Source of the DNA: a virus | Taxonomy: Duplodnaviria > Heunggongvirae > Uroviricota > Caudoviricetes | IMG/VR virus record: IMGVR_UViG_2534681697_000013 | Reading direction: 5' to 3' (one strand) | Length of the DNA stretch: 20,597 nt | Part shown: positions 318 to 16,471 of the stretch, in pieces | Layout of the letters: the number at the start of each line of letters is the position of its first letter | Position numbering within the stretch: the stretch's first letter is position 1 | Notes under the pieces: model-generated | What the model saw: the letters and a program-made list of their open reading frames with translations, nothing else | What the model was told of the DNA's origin: nothing | The model's database searches: none | Translations under genes and position numbers: made by a program

Positions 318-3298
<2,981 letters not shown>

Positions 3299-3374
3299 AA
3301 CCCTTGCTGCGTCTGGAATGTCGTTTTCCATGCTTTTGATGACCGTTCATCACCCTTCCAGTTTTTCGCGGTTT

Positions 3375-3428
3375 TGTGTATTGCAATGTGTATTGCAAAT
3401 TGGCGATCGGGATGGGTGTGTATTGCAA
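3375..3428 (+). repeat. Three direct copies of TGTGTATTGCAA (3375..3386, 3387..3398, 3417..3428); candidate integrase arm-type sites
   Basis: Exact 12-mers between the left junction and the int start; two more copies sit just inside the right junction. Confidence 0.55.
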
Positions 3429-3446
3429 ATCTCTTGAGGGCTTTTA

Positions 3447-4688
3447 ATGGCTATTGAAAACAAACTCAGTGACAAACTGTTAAAGAGTCTTGTCGGAAAA
3501 CGGCAGGACAAACAAAAAACAATAGCGGATGGGCGCGGGTTGTCTGTGCGTGTAAGCATGGTTGGGGGGATCAGCTTTGTTTTTTACTATCGTCTTGGTG
3601 GCAGGGAATCCCCTCCGGTATGGCTTACACTTGGTCGCTATCCTGACATGTCTCTTGCAACGGCCAGGCGCATGCGTGATCAGTGCCGTGAATGGCTGGC
3701 TGAAAATCTGGACCCCCGCAGGCAAATAAAACTTGCTGCCGAAAAAACTATGCAACCAGTGACCGTAAGGGATGCGCTGTTTTACTGGTACGACAATCAC
3801 GCCACAACAGCCAGAAAAGAGCATGAATATTTAATAAAACGATTTGAAAAGCATATCTTCCCCTATATCGGTGATATGGCTATAGAACAGTGCAAATTAC
3901 ACACATGGCTTACCGTCTTTGACAGGATCAAAAAAAATGCGCCTGTTATGTCTGGTGCAATTTTTCTTGATATCAAACAGGCGTTGCGTTTTTGTCGCGT
4001 CAGGCAATACATCGCGTGCGATCCCTTTGGAGATATTAACGTAAGTTATGTCGGGCGCTCATCCGGTATAAGGGATCGCGTTCTTAATATCAATGAAACC
4101 GCTGATGTATGGTCTTATGCTTACGGTAATAATTTGCTAACTCTGTCATCAATATATAACCGAAGAATAATGGTTATCTGCTTGGTGTTTGGTTGCCGAC
4201 AGCAGGAGGCGAGGCTATCCACCTGGGACGAATGGGATTTAAAAAACTGGGTATGGACAGTCCCAAAAGAGCACAGCAAAAACAAGGAGGCTATAGTAAG
4301 GCCTGTTCCTGACGGAATAAAACAATGGATCGTTAATCTTTACGCAGAAACAAAAAATCGCGGTTATGTTGTCGGTTGTGCTTTGCAAAGGGCGACAATA
4401 ACAGGGGCTGCAAACAGAATATGCAGGCGTCTTGGTCATGATACTAATGGCTTGTGGTGCATACATGATTTCAGGCGCACATTTTCCACTACGCTTAATG
4501 ATATGGGGGCGGATCCTTATATTGTCGAACTTCTTTTAGGTCATAAAGTGAAAGGGGTTGCTGGTGTTTACAATAAAAGCAGGCATATAAAGAAAAAACT
4601 TGAGGTGCTTAATATGTGGGTTAATTACCTTAATACGATAGCAGGATTTAACAACAACGTTATCGAGCTTAATAAAGAGGTGGTGTGA
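3447..4688 (+). CDS. int: Tyrosine recombinase / integrase (P4-type), 413 aa
   Basis: ORF with upstream GAGGG; C-terminal HDFRRTF...LLGHK...GVAGVYNKS is the tyrosine recombinase catalytic region. AT-richer than the flanking lambda genes. Confidence 0.92.
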   Translation: MAIENKLSDKLLKSLVGKRQDKQKTIADGRGLSVRVSMVGGISFVFYYRLGGRESPPVWLTLGRYPDMSLATARRMRDQCREWLAENLDPRRQIKLAAEKTMQPVTVRDALFYWYDNHATTARKEHEYLIKRFEKHIFPYIGDMAIEQCKLHTWLTVFDRIKKNAPVMSGAIFLDIKQALRFCRVRQYIACDPFGDINVSYVGRSSGIRDRVLNINETADVWSYAYGNNLLTLSSIYNRRIMVICLVFGCRQQEARLSTWDEWDLKNWVWTVPKEHSKNKEAIVRPVPDGIKQWIVNLYAETKNRGYVVGCALQRATITGAANRICRRLGHDTNGLWCIHDFRRTFSTTLNDMGADPYIVELLLGHKVKGVAGVYNKSRHIKKKLEVLNMWVNYLNTIAGFNNNVIELNKEVV

Positions 4689-5003: not shown

Positions 5004-5582
5004 ATGAATAAAAATATTGCCGTGACGGGCAAGGGGTACGCTCGTCCAGTGAAAAAATTCTGCGATATTCGTGATCTCGTCGTTCTGCGCTTTGATAGTG
5101 TGAACGTTCGTGTGGTGTATCTGAACGGCGATCCGTGGTTTGTTGCAAAAGATGTTTGTGCTGCGCTGGAACTAACCAATTCGCGTACGGCGTTGCAGAT
5201 GCTTGATGATGATGAAAAGGGAGTAAATTTAACTTACACCCCAGGAGGAAATCAGAATATGAGAATTATCTCTGAGTCAGGTTTCTACAAACTAATAGCC
5301 CGCAGCCGCAAAGCAACGACGCCTGGCACATTTGCTCATCGTTTCAGTAACTGGGTATTCAGAAATGTGATACCAGGTATCAGAAAAACGGGGACTTATG
5401 GTATCCCGTGGGGTGCATTACAGGATTTTTCCCGCCGTAAAGAGCAATATCAAATAAGTGCCAGCGAGAAGGGGAGGGAGCTACAGGCATGTAAGCGCAA
5501 AAAGCGTGAGCTGGAGGAAGAAGAAAAAACGCTGATACGTGAATATCAGCCTGAGTTTTACTTTGGTAACCGCATTCAGTGA
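5004..5582 (+). CDS. Bro-N domain protein (antirepressor-like), 192 aa
   Basis: N-terminus VVYLNGDPWFVAKDVCAALELTNSRTALQMLDDDEKG...GGNQNMRIISESGFYKLIARSRKA matches the Bro-N family; C-terminus is a charged coiled-coil-like tail. Confidence 0.78.
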   Translation: MNKNIAVTGKGYARPVKKFCDIRDLVVLRFDSVNVRVVYLNGDPWFVAKDVCAALELTNSRTALQMLDDDEKGVNLTYTPGGNQNMRIISESGFYKLIARSRKATTPGTFAHRFSNWVFRNVIPGIRKTGTYGIPWGALQDFSRRKEQYQISASEKGRELQACKRKKRELEEEEKTLIREYQPEFYFGNRIQ

Positions 5583-5915: not shown

Positions 5916-6221
5916 CTATTCATGCTCTTTGACCTTGCGTCGCTGGAGTTCTTCACGCGCGACGGTGACGAGTTGCCCGATCTCCTCGGCTGCTTTGATG
6001 CCGATTTGTTCGACCTTAGCCAGGGCATCCAGTGACGACACAAGGGGATTTTCTCCGCTGCCTTCTGCTTGGCGGCGGGCTATTTCTCCGCGCATGGCGG
6101 TTACGATAAATCCGGCATTGCTTTCACCGTCCAGCTTAACGGATTCCATCCCTTGCATAACATCTAGTGGGACTCTGACAGTTGTCAGTTGTGATTTTGC
6201 GTTTTTGTTAGCCGTTGCCAT
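5916..6221 (-). CDS. Hypothetical protein, 101 aa; possible ribbon-helix-helix-type regulator
   Basis: AGGAG 8 nt upstream of ATG; N-terminal QLTTVRVPLDVMQGMESVK resembles a beta-strand plus helix start. Transcribed divergently from the operator region. Function is inferred. Confidence 0.5.
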   Translation of the reverse strand: MATANKNAKSQLTTVRVPLDVMQGMESVKLDGESNAGFIVTAMRGEIARRQAEGSGENPLVSSLDALAKVEQIGIKAAEEIGQLVTVAREELQRRKVKEHE

Positions 6222-6242
6222 TTCTGAAACTCCTAATCATCG

Positions 6243-6320
6243 GTGTGTTTCAGTATACACAAAAAAAGAAATACAAAAAGCCTTGACGTGTGTTTCATGC
6301 GCTCATAACATGAAACACAC
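6243..6320. promoter_or_regulatory. Divergent promoter region with operator-like repeats (candidate genetic switch)
   Basis: Plus strand: TTGACG (6283..6288), 17 bp, TAACAT (6306..6311). Perfect 12-bp inverted repeat GTGTGTTTCATG (6288..6299) / CATGAAACACAC (6309..6320), plus a third half-site GTGTGTTTCA at 6243..6252 over a minus-strand TATACT -10 candidate (6252..6257). Confidence 0.5.
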
Positions 6321-6348
6321 CGAAAGGATTGTTGAAATACAAAGAGCA

Positions 6349-6382
6349 ACGCCCCGCAGTGCTGGGAACACATACGGGGCGT
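6349..6382 (+). other. Stem-loop in the 5' leader of the rightward operon
   Basis: 8-bp stem ACGCCCCG / CGGGGCGT with an 18-nt loop, no T tract after it; lies between the promoter and the first ORF. Confidence 0.35.
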
Positions 6383-6411
6383 CTAACCAACAACGTAAAC
6401 TAGGAGCCGTT

Positions 6412-6609
6412 ATGGTTGCTGTAAATCATATACCACACCTTGTACACACACAAACGGCCTTTGTGTGGCGTTTTCTGGCACTGAGTGCCGGAGAATCTCA
6501 AATCATCCACGTAACCGCCTGGACGGAACGCGAAGCGCGTAGCCGTTGCCCGTCCGGTTGTGTTGCTGTATTCGCTGCAAAAATCCGCCAGGGAGTGAGT
6601 CATGCTTAA
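6412..6609 (+). CDS. Hypothetical small protein, 65 aa
   Basis: AGGAG 5 nt upstream of ATG 6412; stop overlaps the next ORF start at 6602. It is the C-terminal frame of the otherwise implausible track ORF 5539..6609. Confidence 0.4.
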   Translation: MVAVNHIPHLVHTQTAFVWRFLALSAGESQIIHVTAWTEREARSRCPSGCVAVFAAKIRQGVSHA

Positions 6610-6787
6610 AACCTTCCGTGTATTTGCCCGAGCTGTTAACCCAATAGGCCACACAATTGGTATCGCTCAGAATGTGAAGGCTGTTAATGTTCAGACGGCT
6701 ATTGCTGCGGTGAGAAGCGAATCATCAGAATATGGCTTATCACAAGTCATTATTTCAGCAGTGTATGAATTAAAAGAGGTGCATTAA
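6602..6787 (+). CDS. Hypothetical protein, 61 aa
   Basis: GGAGTGAG upstream of ATG; overlapping, translationally coupled operon layout. Confidence 0.45.
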   Translation: MLKTFRVFARAVNPIGHTIGIAQNVKAVNVQTAIAAVRSESSEYGLSQVIISAVYELKEVH

Positions 6788-7217: not shown

Positions 7218-7517
7218 ATGGAAATGAAAAATTCTGGCTTTATTGCCAGCGGCCCCGCTCGACCTGAATTTATGAACGGCGATATTTACCGCGATAAATA
7301 CGGCGGCACGGTAACGATTAAAGGCGTGGCAGAACGGCGCATCACTTACCGCCGTGAGGGGTATAGCTATGACTGCGTGATGCCTGTTTATCAGTTCCGG
7401 CGTGATTTTTCCCTGGTATATGCCGCACCCCGCAGTAAGCCCATCAGCAGGGAAAAAGCGTGGGGAAATATCCAGAAAATGAAAACCATGATTAACGGAT
7501 TCAGAGGTAAAAAATGA
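7218..7517 (+). CDS. Hypothetical protein, 99 aa
   Basis: GAGGAA upstream of ATG; stop overlaps the primase start. Confidence 0.55.
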   Translation: MEMKNSGFIASGPARPEFMNGDIYRDKYGGTVTIKGVAERRITYRREGYSYDCVMPVYQFRRDFSLVYAAPRSKPISREKAWGNIQKMKTMINGFRGKK

Positions 7518-9268
7518 AACTGGCACCGAACGTAAAACAGCAGTCACGCGGCATAAAACACAAAGGAACAGAAGTAATTATTTTTGCGGGTAGTGATGCC
7601 TGGGCACACGCGAAACAATGGCAGGAACATGATGCGCGTATGGCCGGAGATAATGAGCCTCCTGTGTGGCTTGGGGAGCAGCAGCTATCCGAACTGGATA
7701 ATCTGCAAATTGTGCCGGAAGGCCGAAAATCAGCACGCATATACAGGGCCGGATATCTTGCGCCTGTAATGATAAAGGCGATTGGTCAGAAGCTGGCGGC
7801 AGCAGGCGTACAGGATGCAAATTTTTATCCTGAGGGTATGCACGGCCAGGAGGTGCAGAACTGGCGCGAATATCTGGCCCGTGAACGCCAGAATCTTTCT
7901 GATGGTCTGGTCATTGAGCTTCCGGTAAAGCAAAAGGCGCAACTTTCGCAGATGGCGGACAGTGAGCGCGCGCAGTTGCTTGCCGATCGCTTTGATGGCG
8001 TTTGCGTACATCCTGAAAGTGAAATCGTTCACGTATGGCGCGGCGGGGTATGGTGTCCGGTCAGCACAATGGAACTTAGCCGCGAAATGGTGGCGATCTA
8101 TTCAGAGCACAGGGCCACTTTCAGCAAGCGCGTAATCAATAACGCCGTGGAAGCGTTAAAAGTTATTGCCGAACCAATGGGCGAGCCGTCTGGCGATTTG
8201 CTGCCGTTCGCCAATGGTGCGCTTGACCTGAAAACGGGGGAATTTTCCCCGCACACGCCGGAGAACTGGATCACCACGCACAACGGCATTGAGTACACGC
8301 CACCAGCACCAGGGGAGAACATCCGCGATAACGCGCCAAACTTTCATAAATGGCTTGAGCACGCAGCCGGAAAAGACCCGCGCAAGATGATGCGTATATG
8401 TGCCGCGCTGTACATGATTATGGCGAACCGGTACGACTGGCAGATGTTTATTGAGGCCACCGGAGACGGCGGGAGCGGTAAAAGTACATTCACACACATA
8501 GCCAGCCTTCTGGCAGGGAAACAGAACACGGTAAGCGCTGAAATGACATCGCTTGATGATGCTGGTGGACGTGCGCAGGTTGTCGGGAGTCGTCTTATCG
8601 TCCTGGCTGACCAGCCGAAATATACAGGCGAAGGAACGGGCATCAAGAAAATCACAGGCGGCGACCCCGTGGAAATTAACCCGAAATATGAAAAGCGTTT
8701 CACGGCGGTAATCAGGGCGGTGGTGCTGGCGACCAACAACAACCCGATGATATTCACCGAACGGGCCGGAGGTGTGGCACGTCGTCGCGTGATTTTCCGT
8801 TTCGACAATATCGTCAGTGAGGCCGAAAAAGACAGGGAGCTACCGGAAAAGATTGCGGCTGAAATCCCCGTTATTATCCGCCGATTGCTGGCGAACTTTA
8901 CCGACCCTGAGAAGGCACGGGCTTTACTACTGGAACAGCGTGACGGTGATGAAGCACTGGCAATAAAGCAACAGACGGATCCGGTTATTGAGTTTTGCCA
9001 GTTCCTGAATTTTCTGGAGGAAGCGCGCGGCCTGATGATGGGTGGCGGTGGTGATTCAGTGAAGTACACGACCAGGAACAGCCTTTACCGCGTCTATCTG
9101 GCGTTTATGGCATACGCGGGCAGGAGCAAACCGCTAAACGTGGCTGAGTTCAGCAAGGCCATGAAGCCAGCGGCGAAAGTTTACGGGCATGAATATATTA
9201 CGCGAAAAGTTAAGGGAGTAACGCAGACCAACGCAATTACAACAGACGATTGCGACGCGTTTTTATAA
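7514..9268 (+). CDS. Primase-helicase (P4 alpha-type), 584 aa
   Basis: Walker A GDGGSGKST and downstream helicase-like region; last gene of the small-ORF operon and followed directly by iterons. Confidence 0.88.
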   Translation: MKLAPNVKQQSRGIKHKGTEVIIFAGSDAWAHAKQWQEHDARMAGDNEPPVWLGEQQLSELDNLQIVPEGRKSARIYRAGYLAPVMIKAIGQKLAAAGVQDANFYPEGMHGQEVQNWREYLARERQNLSDGLVIELPVKQKAQLSQMADSERAQLLADRFDGVCVHPESEIVHVWRGGVWCPVSTMELSREMVAIYSEHRATFSKRVINNAVEALKVIAEPMGEPSGDLLPFANGALDLKTGEFSPHTPENWITTHNGIEYTPPAPGENIRDNAPNFHKWLEHAAGKDPRKMMRICAALYMIMANRYDWQMFIEATGDGGSGKSTFTHIASLLAGKQNTVSAEMTSLDDAGGRAQVVGSRLIVLADQPKYTGEGTGIKKITGGDPVEINPKYEKRFTAVIRAVVLATNNNPMIFTERAGGVARRRVIFRFDNIVSEAEKDRELPEKIAAEIPVIIRRLLANFTDPEKARALLLEQRDGDEALAIKQQTDPVIEFCQFLNFLEEARGLMMGGGGDSVKYTTRNSLYRVYLAFMAYAGRSKPLNVAEFSKAMKPAAKVYGHEYITRKVKGVTQTNAITTDDCDAFL

Positions 9269-9553: not shown

Positions 9554-9868
9554 ATGCGCATACATAAAAATCACTTAACAAACATGCCAGCCGAAAACAT
9601 GAATCAGGGGCGACAAATGACCAAAATTCGCAGAGACAGAACACAGGCAAAATATAAAGCGTTAGACATGACAGAGCTTTCCTTAAAGGTGGCAATCAAA
9701 GCGATAGACCACCACACACGGGCAGGATACGCGAAGGAACATCCCGACCTGATAAGCGCATTCATGACCACAGCAGCGGCAAACTTTGCCACGCTGACAG
9801 AACGGGAGATTGCCGAAGCGGAACAGGTGACAACCATCAATGTTAAAACCGGAGAGCAGACAGCATGA
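9554..9868 (+). CDS. Hypothetical protein, 104 aa (true start may be a downstream Met)
   Basis: ORF after a G-rich Shine-Dalgarno-like tract; stop overlaps the SSB-like gene start (ATGA). Confidence 0.5.
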   Translation: MRIHKNHLTNMPAENMNQGRQMTKIRRDRTQAKYKALDMTELSLKVAIKAIDHHTRAGYAKEHPDLISAFMTTAAANFATLTEREIAEAEQVTTINVKTGEQTA

Positions 9869-10287
9869 CAGCACAGATAGCGGCTTACGGGCGGCTGGTG
9901 GCTGACCCGCAGTTAAAGACCACCAGCAAAGGGACACAAATGGCGATGGCGAGTATGGCGGTTCCCCTGCCGTGCAGCCAGGCAGATGACGGAACGGCGA
10001 CGATGTGGTTATCCGTCCTGGCGTTTGGCAGACAGGCCGACGCACTGGCAAAACACCACAAAGGCGAACTGGTGAGCGTGGCGGGTAACATGCAGGTAAG
10101 CCAGTGGACAGGCCAGAACGGCGAAACGCGGCGGGGCTGGCAGGTTATCGCAGACAGCGTAATCAGTGCGCGAACGGCGCGACCGGGCGGCAAAAAAGGC
10201 CAGCAGGGGCAGGCCACTGACGCACTGAACAGGGCAAAACAACAGTCGGGGAATGATGATCCGTACGGCGATAATATACCGTTTTAA
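9865..10287 (+). CDS. ssb: Single-stranded DNA-binding protein-like, 140 aa
   Basis: OB-fold-like core WLSVLAFGRQADALAKHHKGELVSVAGNMQVSQWTGQNGETRRGWQVIADSV, Gly/Gln-rich linker and a C-terminal ...DDPYGDNIPF tail resembling the SSB DDDIPF tip. Confidence 0.7.
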   Translation: MTAQIAAYGRLVADPQLKTTSKGTQMAMASMAVPLPCSQADDGTATMWLSVLAFGRQADALAKHHKGELVSVAGNMQVSQWTGQNGETRRGWQVIADSVISARTARPGGKKGQQGQATDALNRAKQQSGNDDPYGDNIPF

Positions 10288-16226: not shown

Positions 16227-16471
16227 ATGACGAGCAAAGAAACCTTTACCCATTACCAGCCGCTGGGCAACAGTGACCCGGCTCATACCGCAACCGCGCC
16301 CGGCGGATTGAGTGCGAAAGCGCCTGCAATGACCCCGCTGATGCCGGACACCTCCACCCGTTCTACAAGTCCGGCACGTTCCGTTATGAGGATGTGCTCT
16401 GGCCGGAGGCTGCCAGCGATGAGACGAAAAAACGGACCGCGTTTGCCGGAACGGCAATCAGCATCCTTTAA
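16227..16471 (+). pseudogene. D: Head decoration protein gpD, frameshifted by an internal deletion
   Basis: N-terminal frame reads [43 protein letters not shown] then nonsense; the C-terminal segment [36 protein letters not shown] is in a different frame, from 16361. The locus is about 88 nt shorter than a 333-nt D gene. Confidence 0.75.

Follow-up and report, generated by a model that had tools for sequence, protein, structure and literature searches.

A phage satellite carries a GC-rich hairpin between the promoter of its replication operon and the gene that opens this operon. What does the hairpin do, and on which strand? The hairpin in question was noticed in a 20,597-nucleotide stretch of viral DNA (Caudoviricetes; IMG/VR record IMGVR_UViG_2534681697_000013), hereafter called the window. 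A preliminary description made from the sequence had offered it as a possible site for attenuation, RNA processing, or antisense control of the operon, in the manner of P4-type RNA-based immunity. We conclude, with a probability of roughly three in four, that the hairpin is the intrinsic-terminator stem (SL2) of an unannotated cis-antisense RNA of ∼77 nucleotides (nt), a distant homolog of SymR, that probably blocks translation of an Icd-like gene and, with it, the operon.

The satellite locus and the hairpin

The window is 100% identical to sequence of Escherichia coli strain CFSAN018748 and carries an integrative phage satellite of the PICI type, the features of which are collected in Table 1. 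The replication operon is preceded by the sole sigma-70-like promoter of the region, with a predicted +1 at about 6318. A perfect 12-bp inverted repeat, GTGTGTTTCATG (6288-6299 / 6309-6320), overlaps this promoter; it contains no LexA box and is probably an operator. The YlcI/YnfO-family gene, which probably encodes the repressor of the switch, is read in the same direction as the antisense RNA predicted below and is located downstream of that RNA's terminator. To the right, the stop codon of the Icd-like open reading frame (ORF) overlaps the start of the next ORF (6602), and four small ORFs follow with overlapping or abutting stops and starts (6602/6609, 6787, 6978/6979, and 7514/7517). A phage database search with the hairpin region returned no match.

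Table 1. Coordinates of genes and of observed or predicted control elements in the window
Feature	Position	Strand	Evidence or remarks
Integrase	3447-4688
Bro-N protein	5004-5582
YlcI/YnfO-family gene, 101 aa	5916..6221	-	NF041551, 63.3 bits; phrog_6522
Sense promoter of replication operon	6283..6311	+	TTGACG 6283-6288, 17 nt, TAACAT 6306-6311
Sense mRNA leader	6318..6411	+	Holds full complement of predicted antisense RNA
R1 covariance-model match	6338..6420	-	77 bits, E = 1.6e-14, full length 1-82
U-rich tail GCUCUUUGUA	6338..6347	-	T-run after SL2 in 47/58 homologs
Antisense RNA, predicted, ∼77 nt	6341..6417	-	5' end A6417 by SymR homology; 3' end in tail UGCUCUUUG, about 6341
SL2 (3' stem-loop; the hairpin first noticed is its outer 8 bp)	6349..6382	-	Fold and covariation
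SL1	6385..6417	-	Stem AACCAUAACG / CGUUG-UUGGUU, including complement of AUG
Icd-like ORF, 65 aa, first cistron of operon	6412..6609	+	NF033153 phage_ICD_like, 63.7 bits; SD AGGAG 6402-6406
-10 hexamer TATGAT, predicted antisense promoter	6425..6430	-	Inside codons 5-7 of Icd-like ORF
Candidate -35 TTGTGT, weak (3/6)	6448..6453	-	17 nt upstream of -10; read from sequence
DUF4222 gene	Between small ORFs and primase-helicase
D5/P4-family primase-helicase	7514-9268
SSB, then head genes	3' of primase-helicase

The hairpin itself is just as it was first described, with an 18-nt loop (6357-6374) enclosed by the arms ACGCCCCG (6349-6356) and CGGGGCGT (6375-6382), which form eight Watson-Crick pairs, seven of them G:C. 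Its placement, about 30 nt past the predicted start of transcription and upstream of the first Shine-Dalgarno (SD) sequence, also agrees with the DNA: it starts at a distance of 31 nt from the predicted +1, and the AGGAG at 6402-6406 and the ATG at 6412 come after it. When the window copy and its homologs are folded, the nominal 18-nt loop resolves into a bulge, a further 3 to 5 bp, and an apical loop of 3 to 8 nt.

Taken on its own, the hairpin does not go beyond chance. Perfect 8-bp GC-rich stems with loops of 3 to 20 nt occur three times in the window, compared with 1.26 ± 1.36 times in first-order Markov resamples, a difference that is not significant. Folding of the leader from 6318 to 6412 had been proposed as a check, and the plus-strand leader proved no different from its shuffles (z = -0.39). 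The hairpin is nevertheless non-random, because it is conserved and because its arms covary.

Covariation and the strand that folds

Folding of each homolog and RNAalifold analysis of a plain MAFFT alignment of 29 sequences (A2) gave a picture of two hairpins, and the RNAalifold consensus had 8 of 21 pairs compensated. A covariance model, R1, was built from A2 with 82 positions and 22 pairs, and 58 distinct sequences were fitted to it as alignment A3. In A3, which leans toward structure because it was fitted to the model, 96.9% of the cells pair, versus 86.0 ± 0.5% after column shuffling and 33 to 49% with slid partners; compensatory double changes occur in 15 of the 22 pairs, and none of 500 shuffles reached any of five measures. 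The same pairing pattern is seen in the MAFFT alignment and in the raw sequences. Double compensatory changes are present in 10 of the 14 pairs of helix 3, which belongs to SL2, and all four pairs of helix 2, in SL1, covary. Indeed, some copies have wholly different stem sequences in which the pairing is kept.

The changes are also informative with respect to strand. With the homologs set side by side, the left arm is nearly invariant on the plus strand, and the right arm has A substitutions that face C; each such change makes a C·A mismatch on the plus strand but a U·G wobble on the minus strand. Over the 22 modeled pairs in 58 distinct homologs, the minus-strand reading yields 1061 Watson-Crick pairs, 172 G·U pairs, and 40 non-pairs, 26 of which are U·U at a single position, and the plus-strand reading yields 1061 Watson-Crick pairs, 3 G·U pairs, and 209 mismatches, nearly all C·A or A·C, all of these being cell counts that exceed the number of independent events because the homologs are phylogenetically related. 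The RNAalifold consensus energy from the MAFFT alignment is -24.65 kcal/mol for the minus strand versus -9.0 kcal/mol for the plus strand, and all 58 homologs fold more stably as the minus strand, the mean advantage being 12.5 kcal/mol. In the window, the minus strand from 6417 to 6338 folds with -33.5 kcal/mol (z = -4.68, with 0 of 200 shuffles as good), and the plus strand from 6338 to 6417 folds with -22.7 kcal/mol (z = -1.64). A run of at least three T's lies within 10 nt after the hairpin in 47 of the 58 homologs on the minus strand and in none on the plus strand; on the minus strand the run is at least four T's long in 34 of 58. A GC-rich stem and then a U-tract on the transcribed strand, as expected of an intrinsic terminator, are thus found on the minus strand. 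Given pairing that is selected on this strand and the T-run behind it, the hairpin is most readily interpreted as the terminator stem at the 3' end of a cis-antisense RNA.

These data bear directly on the view that the hairpin works in the rightward mRNA, as a cis-acting attenuator, an RNase processing site, or a 5' stabilizer. In the window, the plus strand forms all 8 bp of the stem without a mismatch, about 31 nt from the predicted +1, and a terminator-like hairpin with a T-run is present on the same strand at 6447-6467. As the mirror image of SL2, moreover, the stem will form in the mRNA to some degree, where it is part of the antisense target. However, the plus-strand mismatches far outnumber the wobbles across the homologs, the T-run is absent from that strand, its consensus energy is poor, neither of its two z scores stands out, and the element at 6447-6467 is not conserved in the family. 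We therefore consider a sense-leader element quite improbable, and the earlier proposals of attenuation or RNA processing in the sense leader find no support here. The proposal of antisense control stands, but the folded RNA sits on the minus strand, as the 172 versus 3 wobbles indicate, and not in the sense leader where it had been placed.

The predicted antisense RNA would consist of two stem-loops, SL1 and SL2, separated by 1 to 2 nt, and a U-rich tail. The SL1 stem starts with AGCCAU, the complement of the start codon. In the window, the 12-nt apical loop of SL1, GCUCCUAGUUUA (6407-6396), holds CUCCU (6406-6402), the complement of the SD sequence AGGAG, and a pyrimidine anti-SD-like tetramer is found in this loop in 55 of the 58 homologs. 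The minus-strand helix of SL2 reaches beyond the stem first noticed, to 6383-6348, and consists of a G·U closing pair, 11 bp, a 1-nt bulge, 3 to 5 bp, and a 3-nt apical loop, which varies from 3 to 8 nt across the homologs. The U-tract that follows in the window, UGCUCUUUG, is interrupted, so the efficiency of termination there is uncertain. A division of labor in which SL1 is a specificity allele and SL2 is constant was considered and rejected, as the mean pairwise identities are 0.67 for SL1 and 0.70 for SL2. We also rejected the idea that the hairpin is part of an N-terminally extended Icd/Ash ORF; that frame is open in the window, but the loop indels among homologs are not multiples of three.

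A candidate promoter for this RNA lies within the first codons of the Icd-like ORF. The -10 element has the form TAnn(A/C)T; none of the 58 homologs departs from its T, A, and final T or from its spacing (7 nt, then the A of AGCCAU), and a G occupies the TGn position in 54 of them. The partner of the invariant final T on the coding strand is a codon third position, and the codons differ (CAT, TCT, AGT, GAT, and others). The encoded residues thus vary while the hexamer is fixed, and the constraint is therefore on the nucleotides rather than on the protein. The -35 region is only weakly conserved in the family (T/T/G-T/A/C-A/A).

Covariation and gene-like anatomy also weigh on a reading of the hairpin as a DNA-level element, that is, a protein-bound inverted repeat or cruciform serving as operator, origin, or recombination site without any RNA function. 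As an inverted repeat it does stand between genes in a regulatory region, beside an operator repeat of proven type, and the E. coli elements have mosaic breakpoints at its two edges (about 6339-6341 and 6403). Yet a protein site would not tolerate the compensatory changes in the arms, which include complete replacement of the stem, and a strand-specific G·U pattern is meaningless for duplex DNA. The invariant -10 and the T-tail are, in addition, what one finds in a gene, and we regard a DNA-level element as highly improbable.

Relationship to SymR and to other regulatory RNAs

In E. coli K-12 MG1655, R1 has a sole match, at 4579832-4579918 (+), with 31.8 bits and a genome-wide E value of 0.004. 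The matched sequence is the annotated noncoding RNA symR (b4625, 4579835-4579911). The mapped 5' end of SymR falls at model position 4, on the same A as the predicted +1 of the satellite RNAs, which is the basis for assigning the 5' end of the window RNA to A6417. The symR loci of strains Sakai, CFT073, and EDL933 score 39.4 bits with R1 (E = 1e-4). In the reverse comparison, the Rfam symR model RF01809 matched eight satellite copies at full length (1-77), at the positions and on the strand given by R1, with 28.7 to 41.2 bits (E = 2e-4 to 0.2), scores that lie below its gathering threshold of 61 bits; the controls, K-12 symR and Sakai symR, scored 95.3 and 94.3 bits. Applied to positions 6150-6750 of the window, RF01809 gave no symR match at an E value of ≤10. 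The homology to SymR is thus distant, since the window copy is missed by RF01809 and its relatives remain below the gathering score. An alignment of SymR with a typical satellite copy has 83 positions, of which 52 are identical.

The resemblance extends from sequence to layout. SymR and the satellite RNAs share the blocks AGYCAUAACUG, UUGUGRUUAG, and GUGUU..GCAC, as well as a -10 element (TAGAAT for SymR), a 7-nt spacer, and an A at +1. SymR and the predicted window RNA are both ∼77 nt long, with two long hairpins and a joint of 1 to 2 nt, and the RF01809 consensus consists of the same two helices. Both start with AG(Y)CAU, the complement of AUG, and both are antisense to a 5' untranslated region, SD sequence, and start codon, with a predicted promoter in the first codons of the target. 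The targets differ, being the AbrB-fold protein SymE for SymR and an Icd-like small protein at the head of the primase operon in the satellite. The sense promoters differ likewise, with a LexA box at symE and a 12-bp palindromic operator beside a YlcI/YnfO-type gene in the satellite. The satellite RNAs have a clearer U-run than SymR and, unlike SymR, they occur in mobile satellites of many genera, often in multiple copies. On the basis of these comparisons, the window antisense RNA appears to be a distant homolog of SymR (RyjC), the antitoxin RNA of the type I toxin-antitoxin system symE-symR.

SymR itself has been studied experimentally; it is 77 nt long and is transcribed from a promoter located inside symE (Kawano, Aravind & Storz 2007, PMC1891008). 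When two silent changes are made in the symR -10 (CATTCT to CACTCC, symE strand), SymR disappears and SymE is derepressed, chiefly at the level of protein, and SymR is active in trans, independent of Hfq and RNase III, very stable, and present in ∼10-fold excess over the symE mRNA (PMC1891008). SymR was placed in that study only with "SymE proper" (PMC1891008), and our literature search found no paper linking SymR to satellites, PICIs, or Icd-like genes.

The comparison with SymR is relevant to a further reading, in which the minus-strand transcript is a leader or second promoter for the YlcI/YnfO-family gene and the hairpin is an attenuator that meters read-through, with transcriptional interference. 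The antisense promoter, the hairpin, and the repressor gene do lie in that order on the minus strand, read-through is plausible because the U-tract is interrupted, and convergent transcription would meet the sense promoter 30 bp further on. However, SymR is a discrete and stable RNA that acts in trans, and the conserved satellite unit stops at its tail, at about 6338-6341, the DNA leftward of it being mosaic and unrelated among homologs; the repressor gene also has a nearer promoter-like sequence, TATACT, of its own. This reading is unlikely as the explanation of the hairpin, and it may describe an added role of the minus-strand transcript.

Similar arrangements exist in other mobile elements. 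FinP, which acts on traJ in F-like plasmids, and sar, which acts on ant in P22, are cis-antisense RNAs of 70 to 80 nt with an anti-RBS sequence in a hairpin loop (SLI in the case of FinP), and both repress translation of the mobile element's first regulatory gene. In P22 immI, small ribbon-helix-helix repressors are paired with an antisense RNA. FinP requires FinO, whereas no partner protein is known for the window RNA. The Rfam FinP and sar models had no match in 6150-6750 at an E value of ≤10.

The C4 RNA of P1 and the CI RNA of P4 occupy a like niche, each a small RNA that gates translation or elongation at the head of an operon; icd is the first cistron of c4-icd-ant in P1/P7, and CI controls the satellite replication (alpha) operon of P4. 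Both C4 and CI are processed from the sense transcript and act through short complementary boxes, in contrast to the window RNA with its own predicted promoter on the opposite strand and its full complementarity to the target. The Rfam models for C4 (RF01695) and isrK (RF01394) matched nothing in the whole window at the gathering score and nothing in 6150-6750 at an E value of ≤10. Identity with P4 CI or P1 C4 was rejected on these grounds, the pairing being selected on the antisense strand in a unit with its own -10, and the P4-type immunity with which the hairpin had been compared is not what the locus contains. Other islands do use such RNAs; some PICIs carry C4/CI homologs, and the HE-PICI paper names only C4/isrK-type RNAs in the Bro zone (PMC10111431).

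Published transcript catalogs that were searched yielded no transcription start or northern result for this locus. Copies are present in EDL933 (NZ_CP008957.1 1682863-1682946), CFT073 (NC_004431.1 1380770-1380854), and Sakai. The Sakai copy (NC_002695.2 1597425-1597508, minus strand) is absent from the 63 Hfq-bound orphan EcOnc small RNAs (Tree et al. 2014), which is weak counterevidence because SymR needs no Hfq. In EDL933, the canonical Cappable-seq table of transcription start sites (TSSs), from which antisense TSSs are tabulated separately, has starts for int and alpA of the O157 island and none at 1682-1683 kb. Two other candidates were rejected. The AgvB/AsxR and Pas small RNAs, which lie in lambdoid late regions, are unrelated. 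The CA-rich plus-strand stretch AACCACAACG, which might have mimicked a GcvB target as AgvB does, is the 3' strand of SL1 on the other strand.

Distribution, predicted mechanism, and significance

An 87-nt query around the hairpin has matches in 1192 of 5426 complete E. coli genomes, almost always without an annotated feature beneath, and up to five places match per genome. The conserved core spans ∼55 to 80 nt around the hairpin (about 6341-6396 in the window) and its flanks are mosaic, many elements having only the sequence to the right of about 6340 in common and others only that to the left of about 6403. Across the family, matches to the DNA core occur in 47 of 401 genomes, representing 34 of 178 genera, and R1 matched 41 of 401 genomes of the order. 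By an exact degenerate pattern, the RNA was found in Xenorhabdus, Photorhabdus, Providencia, Yersinia, Serratia, Erwinia, Pantoea, Pectobacterium, Brenneria, Budvicia, Leminorella, Citrobacter, Enterobacter, Kluyvera, Kosakonia, and Gilliamella. A non-enterobacterial family among the R1 matches proved to be that of Gilliamella, the Orbaceae, because the matched loci are 100% identical to Gilliamella loci; a few pattern matches in unrelated metagenome-assembled genomes are probably due to chance. On ∼100 plasmids of Klebsiella, E. coli, and Salmonella, a remnant is present in which the RNA (90.4 bits) is accompanied by a small RHH-like gene and a truncated Icd-like ORF, adjoining IS903B and a Tn3-family transposase.

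The ORFs overlapped by the RNA are not all of one kind. Eight of 10 scanned match NF033153 (one of them just under the cutoff), and some belong to an unrelated family of 113 to 176 aa. At one locus (L040), the overlapped ORF runs straight on into a primase-like protein that bears a CPVCGG zinc motif. Given these varied targets, the cassette appears to travel with the head of the replication operon and not with one protein family. In this context, symE looks like another fusion of such a cassette.

The location of the antisense RNA points to how it may act. It would be transcribed leftwards from the -10 TATGAT (6430 to 6425), starting at A6417 and ending in the U-rich tail near 6341. Judged by its sequence, the sense leader is the predicted target, including the imperfect mirror image of the hairpin, and the RNA would be expected to pair with 6341-6417 of the leader because it is perfectly complementary to it. 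First contact would probably be loop to loop, between CUCCU of SL1 and the SD sequence, which the mirror-image hairpin of the mRNA displays in its loop; the plus-strand hairpin would be the target-side image of SL2. With the SD sequence and AUG covered, the Icd-like leader cistron would go untranslated, translational coupling would be lost, and Rho-dependent polarity would turn the primase off, the downstream ORFs being silenced too because they overlap or abut up to the primase-helicase. The antisense RNA would thereby add a second lock to that of the operator-bound repressor and set a threshold, in a two-layer switch that may hold the replication genes and the potentially toxic Icd-like protein off until more sense transcript is made than the antisense pool can match. 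We infer the expression of the RNA, its exact ends, translational repression, and polarity from its relationship to SymR and from its own layout.

Gram-negative PICI satellites are common, and how their replication genes are kept silent without a helper phage is poorly understood. Papers on PICIs describe activation by AlpA and, in some islands, P4-type CI RNAs (PMC10111431). What is new here is a predicted SymR-like cis-antisense RNA in a new genetic context and with a new target. Roughly one in five complete E. coli genomes, and genomes across the Enterobacterales, carry this predicted RNA over the RBS of the cistron that opens the operon. It offers a concrete, testable silencing mechanism and ties the satellite switch to a textbook type I antitoxin. 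There is a case for a broader Rfam symR model and for annotation of these RNAs. More generally, a structure that looks like a leader hairpin may in fact terminate a gene encoded on the other strand.

The link to SymR also suggests a hint at the origin of the chromosomal symE-symR locus. We tentatively propose, as a possibility that is still more doubtful than probable, that the SymR-like RNAs are a large unannotated family that forms a maintenance ("immunity") layer of Gram-negative PICI-type satellites, carried as a portable cassette of which K-12 symE-symR is a captured copy. If this is true, the cassette would comprise the sense leader, the antisense gene, and the first few codons, and would gate whichever gene heads the replication operon. 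The gated gene would usually encode a toxic Icd-like peptide, making the pair resemble a type I toxin-antitoxin module in its behavior, and would sometimes be the primase itself. The K-12 symE-symR locus would then be a satellite cassette fused to a different toxin, and, because SymR works in trans, satellites resident in the same cell, with up to 5-6 copies per genome, could cross-silence one another.

Sites at the rightward promoter and within the leader cistron

The spacer and -10 element of the rightward promoter are flanked by the two arms of a perfect 12-bp inverted repeat, which is likely the operator for the divergently encoded YlcI/YnfO-family protein. The promoter of the toxin gene symE has a LexA box, whereas the rightward promoter of the satellite is without one. 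Farther downstream, a terminator-like hairpin lies within codons 12 to 22 of the Icd-like open reading frame (ORF), overlapping the predicted antisense promoter in its -35 region. If the leader cistron is not being translated, this hairpin could stop sense transcription. It was found in the window allele and in the O157 Sakai allele but is not conserved across the antisense RNA family. Two more perfect GC-rich 8-bp stems with loops of 18 to 19 nt are present in the window, at 9894-9927, within an SSB-like ORF (9865-10287), and at 16342-16376.

Features located by sequence in the window and on a plasmid
Feature	Position	Strand	Sequence	Source
Inverted repeat, perfect, 12 bp	6288-6299 / 6309-6320		GTGTGTTTCATG / CATGAAACACAC	Window sequence
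Terminator-like hairpin and T-run	6447-6467, T-run to 6477	+	CACACAAACGGCCTTTGTGTG, then GCGTTTTCTG	Window sequence
Remnant of antisense RNA locus (L072)	2768-3431			Plasmid NZ_CP018705.1 (IncR)

The O157 island of strain EDL933 (NZ_CP008957.1) carries a copy of the antisense RNA gene. A published Cappable-seq table gives transcription start sites (TSSs), at 1680288-1681896, for two genes of this island, those encoding the integrase and AlpA. For 1682-1683 kb, the region in which the Icd-like operon begins, the same table has no canonical TSS, which is weakly consistent with a silent operon.

Copies, alleles, and plasmid remnants

Three genomes, one of them Gilliamella-like, each hold 4 to 6 copies of the RNA gene (G187, G014, and G767; loci L035, L006, and L073-L083). 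The copies are mostly distinct alleles, and in some the stem of SL2, one of the two hairpins of the RNA, differs wholly in sequence while its pairing is kept. About 100 plasmids of the resistance type, from Klebsiella, E. coli, and Salmonella, also have a remnant of the locus; it comprises a gene for an RHH-like product of 59 aa, the antisense RNA itself (90.4 bits), and an Icd-like ORF that is truncated, with IS903B on one side and a Tn3-family transposase on the other.

Mosaic breakpoints and variety of the downstream gene

Mosaic E. coli elements have breakpoints at approximately 6339-6341 and 6403 in window numbering. Many elements share the right part alone (6339-6341 onward), and others share the left part alone (to 6403). 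The first breakpoint coincides with the predicted 3' terminus of the antisense RNA and the second with the loop of its other hairpin, SL1; this suggests that the RNA gene serves as a recombination joint linking the repressor module to the replication module.

Different ORFs stand behind the cassette of sense leader, antisense RNA gene, and first few codons. At some loci it is followed by an unrelated protein of 113 to 176 aa starting MANSNDTL... or MANTNSTT.... In one genome (L040, RNA at 1501-1585), the first codons (MADTQSNQTHPKF...) form a direct fusion with a primase-like protein of 300 aa that bears a CPVCGG zinc motif, and there the primase itself would be gated by the antisense RNA.
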